Shown here: positions 22,710-31,346 of the stretch, piece after piece | How the letters are laid out: every line of letters starts with the position of its first letter | Numbering within the stretch: position 1 is the first letter of the stretch | Assembly: GCA_023659935.1 (NCBI GenBank) | Contig: JAGXOK010000004.1 | Coordinates: 1-45,701 of the forward strand | Length of the DNA: 45,701 nucleotides | DNA from: Candidatus Aenigmarchaeota archaeon LH_S6 | Lineage (GTDB): Archaea; Aenigmatarchaeota; Aenigmatarchaeia; QMZS01 | Reading direction: 5' to 3' | Notes under the pieces: generated by a model | What the model was told of the DNA's origin: nothing | What the model saw: only the letters and a program-made list of their open reading frames with translations | Database searches by the model: none | Made by a program: the position numbers and the translations under genes

Positions 22710-22748
22710 TTTATTTTTCATTTTTAGATTTTTTAGTTTTTGTTTTAT
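22710..22748 (+). terminator. Putative oligo-T archaeal terminator
   Basis: Several T4-T6 runs directly after the stop codon. Confidence 0.4.
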
Positions 22749-22909
22749 AGAGTAGATTTAGTCCTTAAGAAGTTAGGAATAGGTTTTTCAATCAATATTT
22801 TAATTTATCAGTTTATTTATGGCTCAGAAGAAAATTACTGAAATAAATTTAAAGTTTGAGATTTTTGTTGAGGAAGAATTTAAAAAGAATGATAAACTTG
22901 GGTATAACT

Positions 22910-25351
22910 ATGAGTAACTTTCAAGAAAAGATTAGTTTTATCTGGGATCTGGCAGATTTGCTGAGAGGTGTATATAAAAGAAATGAATATCAAAAAGTAA
23001 TCCTCCCTTTTATGGTTCTTAAACGATTTGACTGTGCTTTAAGGGATTCAAAAAAAGTAATTCTTGAAACTTATAATAGGTACAAAGATCAGTTTGAAAA
23101 TAAGGAACATGTTCTTCAAGATGCGGCAAAGGATAAAAAGGGAAATCCATTAGGGTTTTATAATAATTCGAAATATGATTTTAAAGCTCTGCTTGAAGAC
23201 CCGGAAAATATTGAACAGAATTTAATGCATTATCTTGACTGCTTTAGCAGCAATGTTCAGGATATTTTTGAGAACTTTAAAATTAAAGAGAGTATCAGAG
23301 AATTAGCTAAAGCAGATCTTTTATTTCGGCTAATTAAAAAATTCTCAGAATCAAAAGTTGACCTCCATCCAGATATTGTTTCTAATCACGAAATGGGAAC
23401 TATTTTTGAAGAGTTAATTAGAAAGTTTGCAGAGCAGTCAAATGTGGAAGCAGGAGAGTACTTTACTCCTAGGGATGTTGTTGGATTAATGACCAGGTTA
23501 ATTTTTGTTGAGAATGGCGAGAATCTGGAACAGAGGAATATTATCAAAACCGTGTATGACCCTGCCTGTGGTACAGGTGGCATGCTCACAAGTTGTGAAG
23601 ATTTTATCACGAGTATAAATAAGGAAGTTGATGTTGTTTTATTTGGACAAGAGGTCAATCCAGAGATTTATGCCATTTGTAAGGCAGATATGCTGATGAA
23701 AGGAGAGAACGATAAGAATATCAAGGGTCCTTTCAGCACGCTTTCAAAAGACCAATTCCCTGATAATAAATTTGATTTTATCATTTCTAATCCTCCTTAC
23801 GGTAGAAAATGGGAGCTGGATGCAGATGCAGTAAAAAACGAAGCTGAAAAGGGGTTTGAAGGAAGGTTTGGAGCGGGACTACCGCGGATAAATGACGGGC
23901 AGTTGTTATTCTTGCAGCACATGATTTCCAAGATGAAATTAAAGGAGAAATCAAGAGTTGCTGTGATTACAAACGGCTCACCTTTATTTACGGGGGATGC
24001 CGGACAGGGAGAAAGCGATATAAGAAAGTGGATGATTGAAAACGATTATGTTGAAGCAATAATTGCCTTGCCTGACCAGTTGTTTTTCAATACAGGCATC
24101 TATACATATATTTGGGTATTGACTAATGAAAAACCAACTGAGAGAGTTGGCAAAATACAGTTGATTGATGCTACTTCCTTTTTTAAAAAAATGCGGAAAA
24201 GTTTAGGGAAAAAAAGGAATGAGCTTTCTGCTGACGATATTAAGGAGATTGTTGAGTTGTATGACGATTTTGAAGAAAACAAATATTGTAAAATCTTTGA
24301 TAATGAAGCATTTGGCTATACTAAAGTTATTGTTAAAAGACCTTTGCAGTTGAATTATCAAGTCACAGAAGAAAGGCTGGAAAATCTTTATTCAATTCCT
24401 GTTTTTAGAAAATTGGCTGAGAGTAAGAAAAAGAATCCTGAATTAAAACTGAAAGAAGAAGAGGAAGGTAAGAAGAAACAGGAAGAGATTGTTAGTGCAT
24501 TAAAAAAGATTGGGAATAACTTATACAAGAATTGGAATGAATTTGAGAAAAATGTTAAAGAAGCATTGAAAGAGTTTGATTTATCACCAAATTTTATTAA
24601 AAATATTATTCGTGCTTTGTCTGAGCATGATGATTCTGCGGATTATGTTTTAGATGCCAAAGGCAAAAAACAGCCAGACTCAAATTTAAGAGATTCTGAG
24701 AAGGTTCCATTGAAGCAGGATATTGAAGAATATTTTGATAGAGAGGTTAAGCCTTATTATCCAGACGCATGGATGGACAGAAAAAAGGACAAGATTGGCT
24801 ATGAGATTAATTTCACTCAATATTTTTACGAATACGAGCCACCAAGACCTCTGGAAGAGATTGAAAAAGACATAAAAGAGGTTACTGGTGAGATTCAGGA
24901 GCTTTTGAAAGAGGAGTTTAGGTCTAAAACAAATCTAAAAATATCAACTCTTTATGTTTATACAGATGGAGGAAGTAGGGGTAATCCTGGTCCTTCAGCT
25001 ATAGGTATTGTCTTCTTTGATGAAAATAAAAACCAAATTGCAGAACACAAAGAATGTATTGGAGAGGGCACAAACAATCAAGCAGAATATAGGGCATTAA
25101 TCAAAGCTTTAGAATTAGCAACTGCACATTGTAGGAAAAAAATAACGTGTTTTCTTGATAGTGAACTAGTAGTTAGGCAACTGAGCGGGGCTTATAGAAT
25201 AAAAAATGAAAAATTAAGAGAATTATTTTATGTTATTAAAGACAAAGAAAAGGCATTTGAAGAGGTGGTTTATAATCACACAAAAAGGTCAAATAAATTC
25301 ATACACTATGCCGATAAATTAGTAAATGATGCCTTGGAGGGAAGGGAATAA
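22910..25351 (+). CDS. hsdM: Type I R-M methyltransferase subunit HsdM with a C-terminal RNase HI domain (about 24947-25351)
   Basis: GEYFTPR, YDPACGTGG, NPPY and the HsdM end GYEINF..YFY.Y.PPRPLEEI, then in frame YTDGGSRGNPGP...TNNQAEY...DSELVV.Q...ADKLVN. Likely start is MSNFQ at 22910. Confidence 0.93.
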   Translation: MSNFQEKISFIWDLADLLRGVYKRNEYQKVILPFMVLKRFDCALRDSKKVILETYNRYKDQFENKEHVLQDAAKDKKGNPLGFYNNSKYDFKALLEDPENIEQNLMHYLDCFSSNVQDIFENFKIKESIRELAKADLLFRLIKKFSESKVDLHPDIVSNHEMGTIFEELIRKFAEQSNVEAGEYFTPRDVVGLMTRLIFVENGENLEQRNIIKTVYDPACGTGGMLTSCEDFITSINKEVDVVLFGQEVNPEIYAICKADMLMKGENDKNIKGPFSTLSKDQFPDNKFDFIISNPPYGRKWELDADAVKNEAEKGFEGRFGAGLPRINDGQLLFLQHMISKMKLKEKSRVAVITNGSPLFTGDAGQGESDIRKWMIENDYVEAIIALPDQLFFNTGIYTYIWVLTNEKPTERVGKIQLIDATSFFKKMRKSLGKKRNELSADDIKEIVELYDDFEENKYCKIFDNEAFGYTKVIVKRPLQLNYQVTEERLENLYSIPVFRKLAESKKKNPELKLKEEEEGKKKQEEIVSALKKIGNNLYKNWNEFEKNVKEALKEFDLSPNFIKNIIRALSEHDDSADYVLDAKGKKQPDSNLRDSEKVPLKQDIEEYFDREVKPYYPDAWMDRKKDKIGYEINFTQYFYEYEPPRPLEEIEKDIKEVTGEIQELLKEEFRSKTNLKISTLYVYTDGGSRGNPGPSAIGIVFFDENKNQIAEHKECIGEGTNNQAEYRALIKALELATAHCRKKITCFLDSELVVRQLSGAYRIKNEKLRELFYVIKDKEKAFEEVVYNHTKRSNKFIHYADKLVNDALEGRE

Positions 25352-25355
25352 TAAT

Positions 25356-26561
25356 ATGAAACTCAAACCATATCCAAAATATAAGGATTCGGGAATACAA
25401 TGGATTGGAAAGATTCCAGAGGGGTGGGGAGTGAGAAAGATAAAATTTGTTACTCAAGTTTATAGTGGTACAGATGGAAAAGATGAAGGCAACTTTCCAC
25501 TATATGGTGCAAACGGCATTATTGGAAAATGTAAAAGACCAACTTTTAAGGAAGAAAAGGTTATTATTGGTCGAGTAGGATCTTCAGGTGAAATAAATTA
25601 TGCTGAAGGCCATTATTGTGTTTCAGATAATGCGTTAGTACTTAATAATACAAAGAAAATAATATCAAAACATTTGTTTTATGCATTAAATATTATTGAT
25701 TTTTCTATTGATGTCACTCTTAATGCTCAGCCTTTATTAACCGCAACAAATGTAAAAAATAAATTTTTAGTTTTTCCTCCCTTCTCCGACCAAACCGCCA
25801 TCACAAACTTTTTAGATAAAAAAACTGCTAAAACTAATGTCCTGATTGAAAAAGACAAAAAACTAATCGCACTTCTGAAAGAAAAGCGAACCGCCATGAT
25901 AAATCGTGCTGTAACAAAAGGGCTTGACCCGAATGTAAAATTAAAGGATTCAGGAATAAAATGGATTGGGAAGATTCCGGAGGGGTGGGAAGTGAGAAAG
26001 TTGAAATTTAAGGAGACTGTAATAATGGGTCAATCTCCTGATTCAGAAAGTTATAATTATGATAATATAGGTTTTCCATTTTTACAGGGAAATGCAGATT
26101 TTTCAGAGTTCTACCCACAGCCTTCTACTTGGTGTGATAATGCAAATAAATATACGTTAAAGAATGCCATTCTATTATCTGTAAGGGCCCCAATAGGGGC
26201 TTTAAACATAGCGGATCAAAAATATGGAATTGGTAGGGGATTATGTGCAATTCGTGTGAAAATATCTAACTTGAAATATATTTATTATCAACTTATGACA
26301 TGTATAGACTATTTAAATAGCATAGGAACTGGTTCAACATACACTGCAATTTCAACAGAGGATGTAATGAATCTTCCAATGCGATATCCACCAAAACCAG
26401 AACAAACCGCCATCGCCAATTTTTTAGACAGAGCCACCGCTAAAATAGATAAAACAATAAAACTTATAGAACAAAAAGTCAATCTTTTAGAAGAATATAA
26501 AAAATCCTTAATTCATTATGTTGTTACAGGCAAGGTTGATGTAAGAGGAGTTGAAACATGA
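25356..26561 (+). CDS. hsdS: Type I R-M specificity subunit
   Basis: Two TRDs flanked by the repeated KDSGI.WIGKIPEGW and PP..EQTAI.NFLD blocks; ends VVTGK. Likely start 25356. Confidence 0.93.
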   Translation: MKLKPYPKYKDSGIQWIGKIPEGWGVRKIKFVTQVYSGTDGKDEGNFPLYGANGIIGKCKRPTFKEEKVIIGRVGSSGEINYAEGHYCVSDNALVLNNTKKIISKHLFYALNIIDFSIDVTLNAQPLLTATNVKNKFLVFPPFSDQTAITNFLDKKTAKTNVLIEKDKKLIALLKEKRTAMINRAVTKGLDPNVKLKDSGIKWIGKIPEGWEVRKLKFKETVIMGQSPDSESYNYDNIGFPFLQGNADFSEFYPQPSTWCDNANKYTLKNAILLSVRAPIGALNIADQKYGIGRGLCAIRVKISNLKYIYYQLMTCIDYLNSIGTGSTYTAISTEDVMNLPMRYPPKPEQTAIANFLDRATAKIDKTIKLIEQKVNLLEEYKKSLIHYVVTGKVDVRGVET

Positions 26562-29506
26562 AACATACAGACACTTCAGAAAAATCATTTCAAAATGATA
26601 TTATCAGTCATTTAGTCAGTACTGGTTATCATCAGAGAGGCAACCATAATTACAATAGAGCTTCCTGCATAGACCCTGAATTAACCTTAAAATTTATTCT
26701 GGATACTCAACCAAAAGAATGGAAAAAGTTTCAGAGGGTTTACGGAGAACAAGCAGAGCGAAAATTCTTTTATCGTTTGGTGAATGAAATTGATAAAAAA
26801 GGAACGATTAATGTTTTGAGAAATGGGTTTAAGGATGTTGGCTGCCACTTTGAATTATTCTATCCAAAACCAAATACACATAAAAATCCTGACTTGTTTG
26901 AGAAATTTGATAAAAATATTTTCTCTGTTATTAATGAATTAGAATACGAGCAGAAAGAAGATGGCAAGAGGCTGGATTTGGTTATTTCTATTAATGGACT
27001 GCCAATCATCACAATTGAACTAAAAGATACATTTTCCCAGGGTGTTGAGAGAGCAATAAAACAATACAGGAAAGAAAGAGACCCCAGAGAAAAAATCTTC
27101 CAGAGATGTTTTGTTCATTTTGCCATGAGCGATGAAAAGATATATATGGCAACGAAACTGGAAGGATCAAAAACTAGATTTCTACCTTTTAATAAGGGGC
27201 TTGAAAACCCGGAAGTAAATAAAAACGATTATAAAACCTCATACTTATACAACGATATTCTGCAGATAAACAAACTATCAAAATTGATCTCGAATTTCAT
27301 CTATATGGAAAAAAACGAGGATACAAGAGAAGTAAAACCTATTTTTCCAAGATACCATCAATTGGATTGTGTTAATCTCTTGTTAGCAGATGCAAAACCT
27401 GGTAAGAATTACCTGATTGAACATAGTAACGGAAGCGGGAAAACAAAAACCATTGCGTGGCTTTCACACGGCTTAATAAGTAAATTCAACAGCTTAGACA
27501 ACAGGGTTTATGATATGGTTATTGTTGTTTCTGACAGAAGAGTTATAGACAAGCAGCTTCAGAATCAAGTGCAATCTATTGAAAAAGTAAAGGGGATAGT
27601 AGAAAAAATAGAAAAACACTCTGAACAACTTAGAGAAGCATTGGAGACAGGAAGCAATATTGTTGTTACAACGCTACACAAATTCCCGTATATTTTAAAA
27701 GAGGTTAAAGACCTACCAAAACGGAACTATGCAGTAATAATTGATGAGGCACACTCTTCTCAAACTGGCACAATGGCAAGAGAAATGAAACAAGCTCTCA
27801 GCACGAATAGTCTTGAAGGGGCGGAAGCATTAGACAATGAAGGAATGGATGAAGTTAATGAAGAGATGGATGAAGTTGATGAGGAAATCCTTAAGGAAAT
27901 TGAATCTTACAGAAATCTGAAAAATATAAGTTTCTTCGCATTTACAGCCACTCCTAAAAGAAAAACCCTGGAGATGTTTGGAATGCCCGATGAATATGGG
28001 CATTATTACCCATTTCATAGATATACAATGAAACAAGCAATTGAAGAAGATTTTATTCTCGACGTTCTCAAGAATTATTTGACTTATCCAACCTACTTTA
28101 AATTAGTTAAGAAAATACAGGATGATCCCGAATATGATGAGAAAAAAGCCAAGAGATTACTAAGAAATTTTGTAGAGCAACATCCGGTAGCAATAGCAAG
28201 AAAAACAGACATCATGCTGAATCATTTCATGAGTTCTACAATCCATAAAATTAATGGCAAAGCCAGGGCAATGGTTGTGACAAGATCAAGACTCCATGCC
28301 GTATTATATAAAAAGGCATTTGACAAACTAATTAAGGAAAATAATTATTCAATTAAAAGCTTAGTGGCTTTTACAGGCGTAGTTAAACATGACGAACAGG
28401 AATACACAGAAAATTCTATGAATGATCTACCAGCTAAAAAGACAATTGAAAATGCATTTGAGGAAGACCCATACAAAATTTTAATTGTAGCTAATAAATA
28501 TAAGACTGGTTTTGATCAGCCATTATTACACACGATGTACGTTGACAAAATGTTAAATGGAATTACTGCAGTTCAAACTCTGTGCAGGGTAAATAGAATC
28601 TATCCACCACATAAGAATGATACCTTAATTCTGGATTTTGCAAACAAAACAGAGGTAATTCAAAAGGCGTTCCAGCCATATTATGAAACTACATTCCTTG
28701 AAGAAGCTACAGACCCGCATAAGTTGTATGAATTAGAGGAGAAATTATTGGATTATCAAGTATTTGATAAATCTGATATTGAAACTTTTGTTAAAGCATG
28801 GAAAAAAGGAGAACCACAACCTAAATTGCACAATATCTTAAGTCCTGTTGTAAATGAATTCAGGCAAAAAACTAAGAAAGAGCAGGTTGAATTCAAGAAA
28901 ACTCTGAGAAGGTATCAAAATATCTATTCTTTTCTATCACAACTTATTCCCTTTTCTGATATTAATCTGGAAAAGTTATTTATATTTGACAAATTCTTAA
29001 GCAAAAAACTCCCAACAATAAACAATCCTATTCCATTTAGTGTTTTACAGGATGTGGATATTGATTCATATCAAATTGTAAAGAAAGGTAAAAAAGAAAT
29101 AAAAATTGAATCTGAAGGAGAACTAAAACCCATCTCCGCTGGTGTTGGTGAATATGCTCCTGACATAAATGCAAAAATATCAAAAATCATTAAGGATCTT
29201 AACGATGCATTTGGGACTGATTTTACAGATGATGATAAAGTCTTCTTAGGCAGAGTAAAAGACAACCTTTTAGAGGACAAAGAACTAAAAAACAAGATAG
29301 AACATAACTCGAAGGAAAACGTAAATGTAATATTTCCTAAATATTTAGATAGAGAATTAAGTAAGCTCTTAAACAGCAACATGAATTCTTATAAAAAAAT
29401 AGTTGATAATGAAGAATTAAGGAAGAAAATTGAATCCGCCTTATTTGAGTTAGTATATTCCGAGTTTAATAAATACAAAAAGAAGTCTAATAAAAATTTT
29501 AAATAG
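26558..29506 (+). CDS. hsdR: Type I R-M restriction subunit
   Basis: Nuclease D..INGLP..IELK, Walker A GSGKT, DEAH, FTATP, TGFDQP, AVQTL.RVNR. Confidence 0.95.
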   Translation: MKHTDTSEKSFQNDIISHLVSTGYHQRGNHNYNRASCIDPELTLKFILDTQPKEWKKFQRVYGEQAERKFFYRLVNEIDKKGTINVLRNGFKDVGCHFELFYPKPNTHKNPDLFEKFDKNIFSVINELEYEQKEDGKRLDLVISINGLPIITIELKDTFSQGVERAIKQYRKERDPREKIFQRCFVHFAMSDEKIYMATKLEGSKTRFLPFNKGLENPEVNKNDYKTSYLYNDILQINKLSKLISNFIYMEKNEDTREVKPIFPRYHQLDCVNLLLADAKPGKNYLIEHSNGSGKTKTIAWLSHGLISKFNSLDNRVYDMVIVVSDRRVIDKQLQNQVQSIEKVKGIVEKIEKHSEQLREALETGSNIVVTTLHKFPYILKEVKDLPKRNYAVIIDEAHSSQTGTMAREMKQALSTNSLEGAEALDNEGMDEVNEEMDEVDEEILKEIESYRNLKNISFFAFTATPKRKTLEMFGMPDEYGHYYPFHRYTMKQAIEEDFILDVLKNYLTYPTYFKLVKKIQDDPEYDEKKAKRLLRNFVEQHPVAIARKTDIMLNHFMSSTIHKINGKARAMVVTRSRLHAVLYKKAFDKLIKENNYSIKSLVAFTGVVKHDEQEYTENSMNDLPAKKTIENAFEEDPYKILIVANKYKTGFDQPLLHTMYVDKMLNGITAVQTLCRVNRIYPPHKNDTLILDFANKTEVIQKAFQPYYETTFLEEATDPHKLYELEEKLLDYQVFDKSDIETFVKAWKKGEPQPKLHNILSPVVNEFRQKTKKEQVEFKKTLRRYQNIYSFLSQLIPFSDINLEKLFIFDKFLSKKLPTINNPIPFSVLQDVDIDSYQIVKKGKKEIKIESEGELKPISAGVGEYAPDINAKISKIIKDLNDAFGTDFTDDDKVFLGRVKDNLLEDKELKNKIEHNSKENVNVIFPKYLDRELSKLLNSNMNSYKKIVDNEELRKKIESALFELVYSEFNKYKKKSNKNFK

Positions 29507-29515
29507 TAAAATAAT

Positions 29516-30727
29516 TTAGGAATATTTTATTTTTATGTTATCCCATCCCTTCTCTGCTATTATCACATGGTCTAAAACCTTTATATTTAACAGATCTCCT
29601 ACTTTTGTGATCCTTCTGGTTATCTCAACATCATTATCACTGGGCTCTGGATCTCCGGACGGATGATTATGCATCAATATCACCCCTGCTGCTGAGTTCT
29701 TAATGGCTTCCCTAAAAACATCTCTCGGATGTACTAAAGAATTATCTAAGGTTCCAACAGATATTAAGTCTTTCTTGATTATCTTATTTTTACTATCTAA
29801 TAAAAGAGCATAAAAATATTCCTTTTTCTTATCTTTTAATTCATCAATAAGATAATTATAAACATCTTCTGGTTTTTCTATTGTTACCATTTCTTTTGTT
29901 TTAACGGCTTTATTATACCTATTATTAAACTTAAATAGACCAATAATTTGACAAGCTTTTGCAAAACCAATTCCTTTTATCTCTTGAAGTTCTTTTAATG
30001 ATAAATCTGAAAGTTTATCTAAGCCATACTCCTTTATCAATCTGTTTGACATTTGAGTGGCATTTTCTTTTTGATGGCCTGTTCTTAGTATTAAAGCAAG
30101 TAACTCGTCATTGCTAAGATAATCAGGACCATGTCTTTCTAATTTTTCTCTAGGCCTCTCATCTTGAGAAATATCTTTTATTCTTGTGTTGTTTGATTTA
30201 CTTTCCTCGCAATTTTTTTTGAAGAGCGCTTTTCCCACATCTCTAACCTTCAAATTATATTTTTCAGAAAATTTCCTTATTTCATTTAACATATCCAAGT
30301 AGTAATCTGGGGTTGAAAAGACATCGTTTGGTCTTGTTTCTATTTTAAAAATTTCATCGTATACATGAGTATTAAAAATGCAATATCTTTCCGGATTGTG
30401 AAATGTTAAAATACAACTTGCTAAAGATATTCCTACACCTTTAATTTTACATAATTTTCTTATTTTTTTACTCTCTTCTTCGGTTTCAAATGCTTCACGA
30501 GTAATTTTTTCTATTTCCGAACCATCCATTTGTTCAAGAAAATTAATTGCCTTTTCTCTATTTTTTTCTAAACCTTTATAAAATTTCCATTTTACTACTT
30601 TTATCAAATCTTCTTTTGTTAGAAAATTCTTCTGGCTTATTATAGTCTCTATTTCTTTTTCTAAATCAAAGGATTCATTTTTACTGTTATACTTATCTAA
30701 CCATTCTGATACTTCCTGGATTTGCAT
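29516..30727 (-). CDS. radC: RadC (JAB domain) protein with an additional ~180-aa N-terminal HhH-containing domain
   Basis: RPREKL..G...LS..ELLAL.L.TG, IKGIG.AKA, VHPRDVF, HNHPSGDPEPS..D; the N-terminal part has LCKIKGVGISLASCIL. Confidence 0.88.
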   Translation of the reverse strand: MQIQEVSEWLDKYNSKNESFDLEKEIETIISQKNFLTKEDLIKVVKWKFYKGLEKNREKAINFLEQMDGSEIEKITREAFETEEESKKIRKLCKIKGVGISLASCILTFHNPERYCIFNTHVYDEIFKIETRPNDVFSTPDYYLDMLNEIRKFSEKYNLKVRDVGKALFKKNCEESKSNNTRIKDISQDERPREKLERHGPDYLSNDELLALILRTGHQKENATQMSNRLIKEYGLDKLSDLSLKELQEIKGIGFAKACQIIGLFKFNNRYNKAVKTKEMVTIEKPEDVYNYLIDELKDKKKEYFYALLLDSKNKIIKKDLISVGTLDNSLVHPRDVFREAIKNSAAGVILMHNHPSGDPEPSDNDVEITRRITKVGDLLNIKVLDHVIIAEKGWDNIKIKYS

Positions 30728-30732
30728 ATTAT

Positions 30733-30822
30733 TTATTGTATAACACCATTCAAAGCAGATGCTCCTAATTTTTGAAATCTTTCTCTTAGTCTATTTTCTT
30801 TTGAAATATTTTTAATCTGCAT
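30733..30822 (-). pseudogene. 5' stub of a second, canonical radC
   Basis: Manual translation MQIKNISKENRLRERFQKLGASALNGVIQ* aligns with IKDISQDERPREKLERHGPDYLS in the downstream RadC. Confidence 0.7.
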
Positions 30823-31174
30823 ATAATTAGTTAATCATAGATTATTTATTAAATCTATCCCTAATGTTAGTAAAGGTTTTTCCTATATCTCCTGTATAAT
30901 TAATTTTAAGTTTTGCATTTTAATTTGCTCTAGAACTTCGTGCCTCTCGCAGTAAAATAGGGAAATTAAAGTAGCAAGTAAAGGTATACACAGATATGAA
31001 CTTTCTCTGATTGTTTTTCTTCTAAATGTTTTATCAATAATTGTTTATTATATTCTGAAATTCTTAACAATCTTCTATAACTAAGTTTTCTCTGATTGTT
31101 GTTTTTTATACTCTTTCATATATGCACCTTGTTTTGCTATCTCTCTAAGGAAAGTAACATATACAAAAGACTTC

Positions 31175-31346
31175 CGCCTCAGGAAGGATTTCCGTAGTCA
31201 AAATACAGGAGATAATATCTCTGCGAAGCAGGAACCTCCCTTTCTTTTGACTTTGAGGAATTTTCTTTTAGGAAAGAAAAGTCTTCACTCGAACCTTCGA
31301 CCTCCTGGTTAACAGCCAGATGCTCCACCTACTGAGCTACTGAGGC
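31175..31346 (-). tRNA. tRNA-Asn(GTT) with a 99-nt T-loop intron (about 59/60; 31189-31287)
   Basis: Minus strand: GCCTCAG TA GCTC AGTAGGTG GAGC A TCTGG CT GTT AA CCAGG AGGTC GAAGG TTCGAG [intron] T CCTTC CTGAGGC G; BHB-like helix TTCG/CGGA. Confidence 0.9.

Follow-up and report, generated by a model that had tools for sequence, protein, structure and literature searches.

Contig JAGXOK010000004.1 of Candidatus Aenigmarchaeota archaeon LH_S6 (assembly GCA_023659935.1) carries, within the 45,701-nucleotide stretch analyzed here (the window, to whose positions all coordinates refer), a complete Type I restriction-modification (R-M) operon whose methylase subunit, HsdM, continues without interruption into a ribonuclease HI (RNase HI) domain. 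The fusion gene is a single open frame at 22910..25351 (+) that encodes 813 amino acids from an ATG at 22910, a start shared with homologues: unfused HsdM proteins begin with the identical MSNFQEK. Its hsdM part (residues 1-670; 22910..24919, +), delimited with Pfam, PADLOC and unfused relatives, comprises HsdM_N (residues 9-145, 2e-22), N6_Mtase (residues 159-464, 6e-68) and a long C-terminal helical region. This part contains the S-adenosylmethionine (SAM) motif DPACGTGG and NPPY (as NPPYG), and the PADLOC MTase_I profile PDLC03029, of 661 positions, matches residues 2-668 with an E value of 2.7e-271. HsdM-like sequence stops at F670 (...EIQELLKEEF; codon 24917-24919). A linker of seven codons, RSKTNLK (24920..24940, +), placed by alignment with standalone relatives and by an AlphaFold2 (AF2) model, then leads into the RNase HI domain (residues 678-813, 136 amino acids; 24941..25351, +), which was recognized by Pfam, NCBIfam, phmmer and AF2/Foldseek and ends at its own stop, TAA at 25349-25351. 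Pfam places RVT_3/RNase H at residues 685-807 (8e-15) and RNase_H at 681-768 (1.5e-11), and the NCBIfam RNase HI models match residues 681-811 with E values from 2e-30 to 4e-15. Reading of the sequence found no stop and no in-frame ATG, GTG or TTG ahead of the domain.

The stop of the fusion gene is followed by TAA T and then by the ATG of hsdS at 25356, four nucleotides after that stop. hsdS (25356..26561, +; 401 amino acids) encodes two target-recognition domains (TRDs), as seen from Pfam, PADLOC and repeats: Methylase_S matches in two stretches, PADLOC Specificity_I matches at 3e-90, and the gene contains internal direct repeats D1 (73 nt, 88%) and D2. The start of hsdR (26558..29506, +; 982 amino acids) overlaps the hsdS stop by 4 nt. 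HsdR, assigned by Pfam, NCBIfam, PADLOC and motifs, contains HSDR_N (2e-15) and a superfamily 2 (SF2) motor, with SWI2_SNF2 (3e-24), ResIII and T1R_D3 (2e-13) among its Pfam matches; the motifs D...ELK, GSGKT and DEAH are present, PADLOC REase_I also matches, and the match to TIGR00348 (5e-66) falls under NCBI's cut-off. The sequence features expected of a Type I R-M system are all found at this locus: an HsdM combining HsdM_N with a gamma-class N6-adenine methylase, an HsdS with two TRDs and repeats, and an HsdR with nuclease and motor. A first-pass annotation of the window, made from its letters, had described an in-frame fusion of HsdM to RNase HI without a stop or separate ATG, an hsdS gene beginning 4 nt after the fusion stop, and hsdS and hsdR genes that look intact. 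Each of these descriptions holds, and the fusion does lie inside a complete Type I R-M operon; its boundaries are corrected here in that the HsdM-homologous part is residues 1-670.

Comparison with unfused relatives locates the joint between the two halves. Fourteen unfused HsdM proteins (P0068-P0081, 669-682 amino acids) are 78-91% identical to the HsdM part of the window, the closest being P0069 at 91%, and they end in ...KEEL or ...KEGL at the position of F670. In contigs of related systems from a metagenome run (X4), position 24916 is joined to 25352 with CTT between, which gives ...E E L, TAA, T and the hsdS ATG; other joints in the same run connect 24918 to 25353, 24915 to 25353 and 24907 to 25359, skipping 434-451 nt. 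In the window, 25349-25358 reads TAA TAA T ATG, that is, the stop of the insert followed by the old hsdM stop. As judged from these contig joints and protein ends, the RNase H part entered as an insertion whose length is exactly 145 codons (435 nt; 24917..25351, +); the segment is missing from unfused relatives and lies between the last hsdM codon and the ancestral hsdM stop, which is retained with a T at 25352..25355 (+) before the ATG of hsdS. In alignment A1 the ATA codon at 24941 aligns with the start methionine of the standalone relatives L010 and L011, so the linker was probably once the spacer ahead of a standalone rnhA, and ATA probably its start ATG. The fusion event is evolutionarily recent.

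The RNase HI domain appears intact in sequence and in predicted fold. The first-pass annotation had proposed that all four catalytic positions are present, and the carboxylates D-E-D-D do lie in the motifs that it quoted, as D686, E726, D750 and D802, aligned with conserved columns; the consensus residue is kept at 25 of the 25 columns that are conserved in at least 85% of 89 relatives. The nearest solved proteins by phmmer are RNase H1 structures 3u3g/4h8k (E 5e-26), followed by 3hst and 4e19; of these, 4h8k is a D-to-N mutant at the third catalytic position, bound to an RNA/DNA hybrid. An AF2 model of residues 662-813 of the fusion was obtained with a pLDDT of 94.4 and a pTM of 0.87, and its succession of secondary structure elements (strand-strand-strand-helix-strand-helix-helix-strand-helix) is that of the RNase H fold, in which helices A, B, D and E accompany a five-stranded sheet. 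The best Foldseek matches of this model are all RNase H1 (E 1e-16; TM 0.83/0.94 to 4e19), and it superposes on 4e19, 3u3g, 3hst and 4h8k with an rmsd of 1.1-1.7 A. In the model the C-terminal helix of HsdM reaches residue 675 and strand 1 begins at 680, so that the tether would be only about four residues long. Against standalone relatives the dN of the domain is 0.21-0.24 with dS saturated, and dN/dS is about 0.11 where defined (L011); in a FastTree phylogeny its end branch is 0.16, compared with 0.19 for L010 and 0.31 for L011, and neither the ratio nor the branch length isolates the period after fusion. On its residues and its modeled fold the domain looks catalytically competent, and we infer that the fusion protein has RNase H activity.

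The same fused gene is found in three further contigs, which derive from sequencing runs X1-X3 of one study; the runs bear three organism labels, hold about 1 million letters each and may themselves be assemblies. Each contig spans 22000-25432 in one piece, with the same continuous junction, and the X1 contig (23,476 nt) extends across the entire island described below and its flanks. These versions are 2-5% diverged from the window, with 192 differing letters over 8001 nt in X1, 146 over 3433 nt in X2 and 157 over 3433 nt in X3. Indels were listed in full for X2 and in part for X1 and X3, and all 12 gap letters of X2 fall outside the RNase H domain. In X2 and X3 both TRDs of hsdS are replaced. 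The fused gene has therefore persisted through strain divergence and through TRD replacement, and the exchange of hsdS TRDs between strains marks the R-M system as one that is in use. Two other differences were seen among these contigs: X2 and X3 have about 2075 and about 1826 extra letters, respectively, between hsdS and hsdR (26563-26567), and hsdR contains, where it encodes an acidic stretch, a tandem duplication of 21 nt (27836-27877), one copy of which X1 and X2 lack. Five other runs (X5-X9) hold small shares of the stretch.

The two halves of the fusion protein differ in origin, as far as sequence relationships tell: HsdM resembles proteins named from bacterial genomes, and the RNase HI is archaeal, from the window's own class. 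Of the unfused HsdM proteins, 78-91% identical to that of this archaeon, some of those at 84-91% identity are named by their sources as coming from Thermotoga sp. and Caldisericota genomes. This similarity points to recent transfer of the HsdM gene between bacteria and archaea. For the RNase H part, a FastTree phylogeny of 90 rows and 138 columns, in which deeper forks are weak, groups the fused domain with the metagenome genes L010 and L011 (support 99), and this clade in turn falls inside a set of 34 rows, every one of them from the archaeal class of the window (support 91 and 85). Three standalone genes, L010, L011 and L012, are 72-75% identical to the fused domain by tblastn, and all others are at most 57% identical. 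Among viral contigs 133 relatives were found, the best 43% identical and none close.

The R-M operon lies in an island of about 8.4 kb (22730..31170), which was delimited by comparison with G002, a 94% complete genome of the same genus. Between the genes on either side of the locus lie 1150 nt in G002 and 9533 nt in the window, and in the alignment G002 retains the membrane-protein gene and the tRNA gene and lacks the R-M and RadC genes; the R-M system therefore sits in an island at the 3' end of a tRNA gene. The borders are a small membrane-protein gene on one side and, on the right, the 3' end of the tRNA gene (31176..31346, -), which was identified by Rfam and by alignment with G002. This tRNA gene has an intervening sequence and is 40 nt longer than its G002 counterpart; Rfam matches only 31270-31341 (37 bits), and ARAGORN reported no tRNA in the window. 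No attachment-site repeats were found around the island, and no integrase was seen among its open reading frames (ORFs). The sole other cargo gene encodes a RadC-like JAB protein of 403 amino acids (29516..30727, -; Pfam RadC 1e-43, UPF0758_N 4.5e-27) that has an extra 180-residue N-terminal part with a helix-hairpin-helix and no PADLOC match. In three further same-genus genomes (G003, G004 and G005) the island's flanking genes are found on separate contigs, each at a contig end, which suggests a variable hot spot at the tRNA gene.

The genome that contains the window (G000) comprises 728,758 bases on 63 contigs and is 71% complete. The first-pass annotation had asked whether the fused domain is the only rnhA of the genome, and it is indeed the sole type-1 RNase H of G000. 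An RNase HII gene lies on another contig (C7:11274-14047, locus L002); it is interrupted by an intein with LAGLIDADG-type motifs, giving an ORF of more than 670 amino acids as against about 200 for RNase HII. RNase HI was found in none of the 10 same-genus genomes and, across the phylum, in 75 of 371 genomes, where all matches apart from the G000 fusion lie in frames of 67-394 amino acids. Type I genes are frequent in the genus, with HSDR_N and N6_Mtase each in 6 of 10 genomes. Given a genus otherwise without RNase HI, the island setting and an RNase HII gene elsewhere in the genome, the domain belongs to the accessory island and is not part of the housekeeping equipment of the lineage.

In most respects the operon resembles classical Type I R-M systems (the PDLC03029 family; solved examples 7vru, 7bst of EcoR124, and 3lkd), with three subunits, the expected domains, M-S-R order and genes that nearly touch. 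It differs from them in that HsdM carries RNase HI past its normal last residue, an arrangement absent from the best 150 of 28,112 HsdM relatives and from the PADLOC models. The added domain, in turn, shares its fold and its four acids with LC11-RNase H1 (3u3g; 4h8k with hybrid) and with Halobacterium salinarum RNase H1 (4e19), with TM scores of 0.81-0.83 on the query and 0.88-0.95 on the target at 38-41% identity. The archaeal-type enzymes 3u3g and 4e19 are free-standing proteins of about 130-200 amino acids without a basic protrusion, whereas here the domain is the tail of a methylase and has no start codon. A fusion of RNase HI of the same subfamily to another enzyme is already represented by Rv2228c of Mycobacterium tuberculosis (3hst; NF005567), which we take to be the best-known case of this RNase HI as a frequent fusion partner; in that protein an N-terminal RNase H precedes an enzyme of the histidine-phosphatase type, whereas the present one follows, at the C-terminus, a DNA methylase of a defense system. 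A ribonuclease embedded in an hsdMSR operon also has a precedent: the anticodon nuclease PrrC lies within the Type Ic hsdMSR locus EcoprrI, which keeps it in a latent state (PMC3710099). As an HEPN/ABC-ATPase protein of its own that cleaves tRNA, PrrC differs from the present element, an RNase HI that is covalently fused to HsdM and has no known trigger. Pfam, NCBIfam and PADLOC found no HEPN or ATPase domain in the fusion, and the analogy is one of gene position only.

RNase HI genes also occur next to R-M genes at a few other sites. L010, which among relatives whose two flanks can be read is the closest (tblastn identity 75%), encodes 138 amino acids and begins 3 nt after an N6_Mtase gene; it overlaps by 14 nt an S-like ORF, a fragment of 66 amino acids without a Pfam match whose likeness to S subunits is a reading of its N-terminus only. 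The L010 methylase is only 23% identical to the HsdM of the window, and a six-base likeness (TTT...AGG) at the ends of the two methylase genes was rejected as too short to count. In G181, a genome of the same class as the window, an rnhA of 155 amino acids overlaps by 11 nt an hsdR of 1081 amino acids (HSDR_N 6e-28; locus L201, G181:C19:1-5321), and a YgjP-like peptidase gene follows hsdR, the genes again overlapping; the hsdM of this genome lies on another contig and is followed by a 93-amino-acid ORF. The rnhA-hsdR-YgjP string adjoins an AGOG DNA glycosylase gene. Finally, P0029 and P0045 (1204-1208 amino acids) combine an N-terminal RNase H, 46-47% identical and with the acids present, with an MmeI-like methylase and Type_ISP_C. 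In them RNase HI of this kind was joined independently to an R-M methylase, and they differ from the present fusion in being single-chain Type IIG/IIL-like proteins with the RNase H at the N-terminus and in being bacterial, one of them named 'Predicted helicase [Armatimonadetes bacterium GXS]'.

Both partners of the fusion accept other additions. RNase HI of this type is joined to glyoxalase, Nif3, formyltransferase, MazG, HD, histidine phosphatase, CoaBC, GNAT, SAP, reverse transcriptase and TPR+HEPN_Swt1 partners. The nearest fused relatives of the domain (P0002 and P0091-P0102; 343-470 amino acids, 52-57% identical) are 'two-headed' RNase H + TPR + HEPN_Swt1 proteins, some of which are named by their sources as coming from Methanophagales, and P0003 is a reverse transcriptase-RNase H protein. 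The C-terminus of HsdM is likewise a site of additions, since Methylase_S is carried by 4 of 10 long relatives scanned. One further protein among the ten, P0255 (1431 amino acids), is an HsdM of the family that carries an SMC_N/AAA fragment together with SEFIR/TIR and protein kinase domains.

Taken together, we hold with high confidence that the gene is a real and evolutionarily recent fusion, in which an archaeal rnhA was placed between hsdM and hsdS of a widespread type of Type I R-M operon within the 8.4-kb archaeal island. An archaeal RNase HI gene would have landed between the two genes, and with the loss of the hsdM stop and of the rnhA start RNase HI would be made only as a C-terminal domain of HsdM, on a very short linker. 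That two genes were wrongly joined in sequencing or assembly is very improbable. All of the sequences are metagenome-assembled, and X1-X3 are tiny, come from one study and may be assemblies; yet the same junction recurs in four versions that differ by 2-5%, a separate RNase H would have no possible start codon, and the old stop stands behind an insertion that measures exactly 145 codons. It is also unlikely that the RNase H domain has fallen out of use and that the fusion is decaying, with selection acting on HsdM function only. The fusion is young and restricted to a single lineage, and the selection figures, with dS against standalone relatives saturated, do not isolate the time since fusion, but the 25 conserved columns and the four acids are all kept, the domain is free of indels in X2, its end branch falls short of the branches of its standalone sisters, and its fold prediction is of high confidence. 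Improbable, too, is a PrrC-like second-line effector, an RNase H that the R-M complex would restrain and that would act on hybrids of replication or transcription once a viral anti-restriction factor disables the complex; the latency of PrrC in a Type Ic hsdMSR locus (PMC3710099) is its precedent, and the nearest fused relatives include the RNase H + TPR + HEPN_Swt1 proteins and P0003. Against such an effector, no sensor or regulatory element was seen in the fusion, and the domain is indistinguishable from standalone RNase HI of the housekeeping type. RNase HI is a normal cellular enzyme, and we know of no case in which it acts as a toxin.

For the function of the fused domain, two readings carry most of the weight, and both had been raised in the first-pass annotation, the first as possible clearing of R-loops or targeting of hybrids, the second as a chance passenger. 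It is possible, and we propose it tentatively, that RNase HI serves as an accessory of the R-M system and that both parts are active. Type I complexes have the stoichiometry R2M2S1, and on this textbook figure two RNase HI domains would be present per M2S1 or R2M2S1 complex, one at the end of each HsdM C-terminal helix. There the domain might cut the RNA strand of hybrids met by the complex, such as R-loops or primers on incoming or freshly replicated DNA; such hybrids would mask recognition sites or block methylation and translocation, and their return to duplex would allow the enzyme to read, methylate, translocate or cut. About as likely is that the domain is a passenger, a horizontally mobile accessory RNase HI that came to lie within the operon in a variable island and was joined to HsdM by loss of a stop and a start; it would act as an ordinary RNase HI, removing primers or R-loops for the cell, or be neutral, and would have no tie to R-M. 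The passenger reading accords with the many unrelated enzymes to which this RNase HI type is fused (among 7703 longer RNase H proteins, E <= 1e-10), a promiscuity that makes fusion in itself weak evidence of coupling; the N-terminal RNase H of Rv2228c (3hst) also sits in a two-domain protein, and NF005567 describes a bifunctional RNase H/acid phosphatase. The 91% identity of the HsdM half to unfused P0069 would moreover have left little time for co-adaptation. On the other side, the closest flanked relative, L010, lies inside an M-S pair and the G181 rnhA overlaps hsdR, the genus otherwise lacks RNase HI (0 of 10) and so has no evident housekeeping need for it, and four diverged versions have all retained the insertion between hsdM and hsdS, two genes linked in translation, during the reshuffling of hsdS.

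Several search results weigh against a functional tie of RNase HI to restriction; the fusion searches among them rest on shared words or top matches and could miss distant analogues. No second HsdM-RNase H fusion was found in 80 matches from 1297 candidates of 447-1423 amino acids (66 RNase H and 14 plain HsdM proteins) or in the best 120 of the 7703 longer RNase H proteins. An RNase H profile matched none of the best 150 of the 28,112 HsdM relatives, 35 of which are at least 780 amino acids long, and the positive controls were found. The 371 phylum genomes hold no second fusion, no site in 799 plasmid records covers both halves at meaningful identity, and the Protein Atlas has plain HsdM clusters only. 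Haloarchaeal plasmid rows that appeared 87-89% covered proved to be long RNase HI genes at 25-28% identity, not fusions. The search for other HsdM_N + N6_Mtase + RNase_H proteins that the first-pass annotation had suggested thus returned none, and its concern that the fusion might be a singleton is borne out in part: the fusion is confined to a single lineage, the window and three near relatives, and all four versions may derive from one study. The RNase H part matches no family of the PADLOC-DB 2.0 defense models, as is also the case for the L010 and G181 RnhA proteins, and none of the sequencing runs matched that contain this stretch is an RNA run. Genome-level co-occurrence is likewise lacking, in that RNase HI (75 of 371 genomes) and HSDR_N (54 of 371) occur together in 9 genomes, where about 11 would be expected if they were independent. 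Apart from G000, only G181 among the 371 genomes has RNase HI adjacent to hsdR, and neither N6_Mtase nor Methylase_S lies beside RNase HI among the matches listed. R-M queries run by tblastn against all 200 loci matched only in L010 and L105, and L011 and L012, relatives as close as L010, have no R-M gene on their readable sides. By rough arithmetic, a single adjacency among the 8 other genomes with both genes would be expected about 0.02-0.1 times by chance, and the clustering of accessory genes in islands makes this figure an underestimate. A broader proposal would take the HsdM fusion, the L010 gene encoded between M and S, the G181 gene that overlaps hsdR and the MmeI-like fusions P0029 and P0045 as cases of one recurrent, unrecognized R-M accessory, an RNase HI that makes restriction RNA-aware; we regard this proposal as doubtful.

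The first-pass annotation had also stated that no characterized system of this kind was known, and neither a description nor a second example emerged from the literature or the sequence searches. Within the accessible parts of the literature searched, supplements excluded, an HsdM-RNase H fusion is undescribed (PMC3710099, PMC3702460, PMC12458937 and bioRxiv 10.1101/2023.12.08.570793 among the sources). RNA-aware restriction has been proposed for other systems (PMC3702460), and the literature searched yielded no such proposal for Type I enzymes.

The fusion arose in a system that appears to have crossed recently between bacteria and archaea, and the near-identical unfused system, with its 91% identical HsdM, provides a natural control for what the added domain does. 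Type I R-M enzymes are not known to act on anything but duplex DNA. If the tethered RNase HI alters reading, methylation or cutting, a step that acts on RNA:DNA hybrids would be added to the oldest known defense system, and RNase HI would have a role outside replication and repair. Should RNase HI prove to be a recurrent R-M accessory, the complex could reach foreign DNA during its transcription or replication, when RNA:DNA hybrid would otherwise shield it, because the RNA in R-loops and primers would be removed or sensed. If the domain is instead a passenger, the locus would still show, cleanly and with a datable event, how gene fusions arise, with an insertion of 145 codons, the old stop kept in place and a probable former start codon preserved as ATA.

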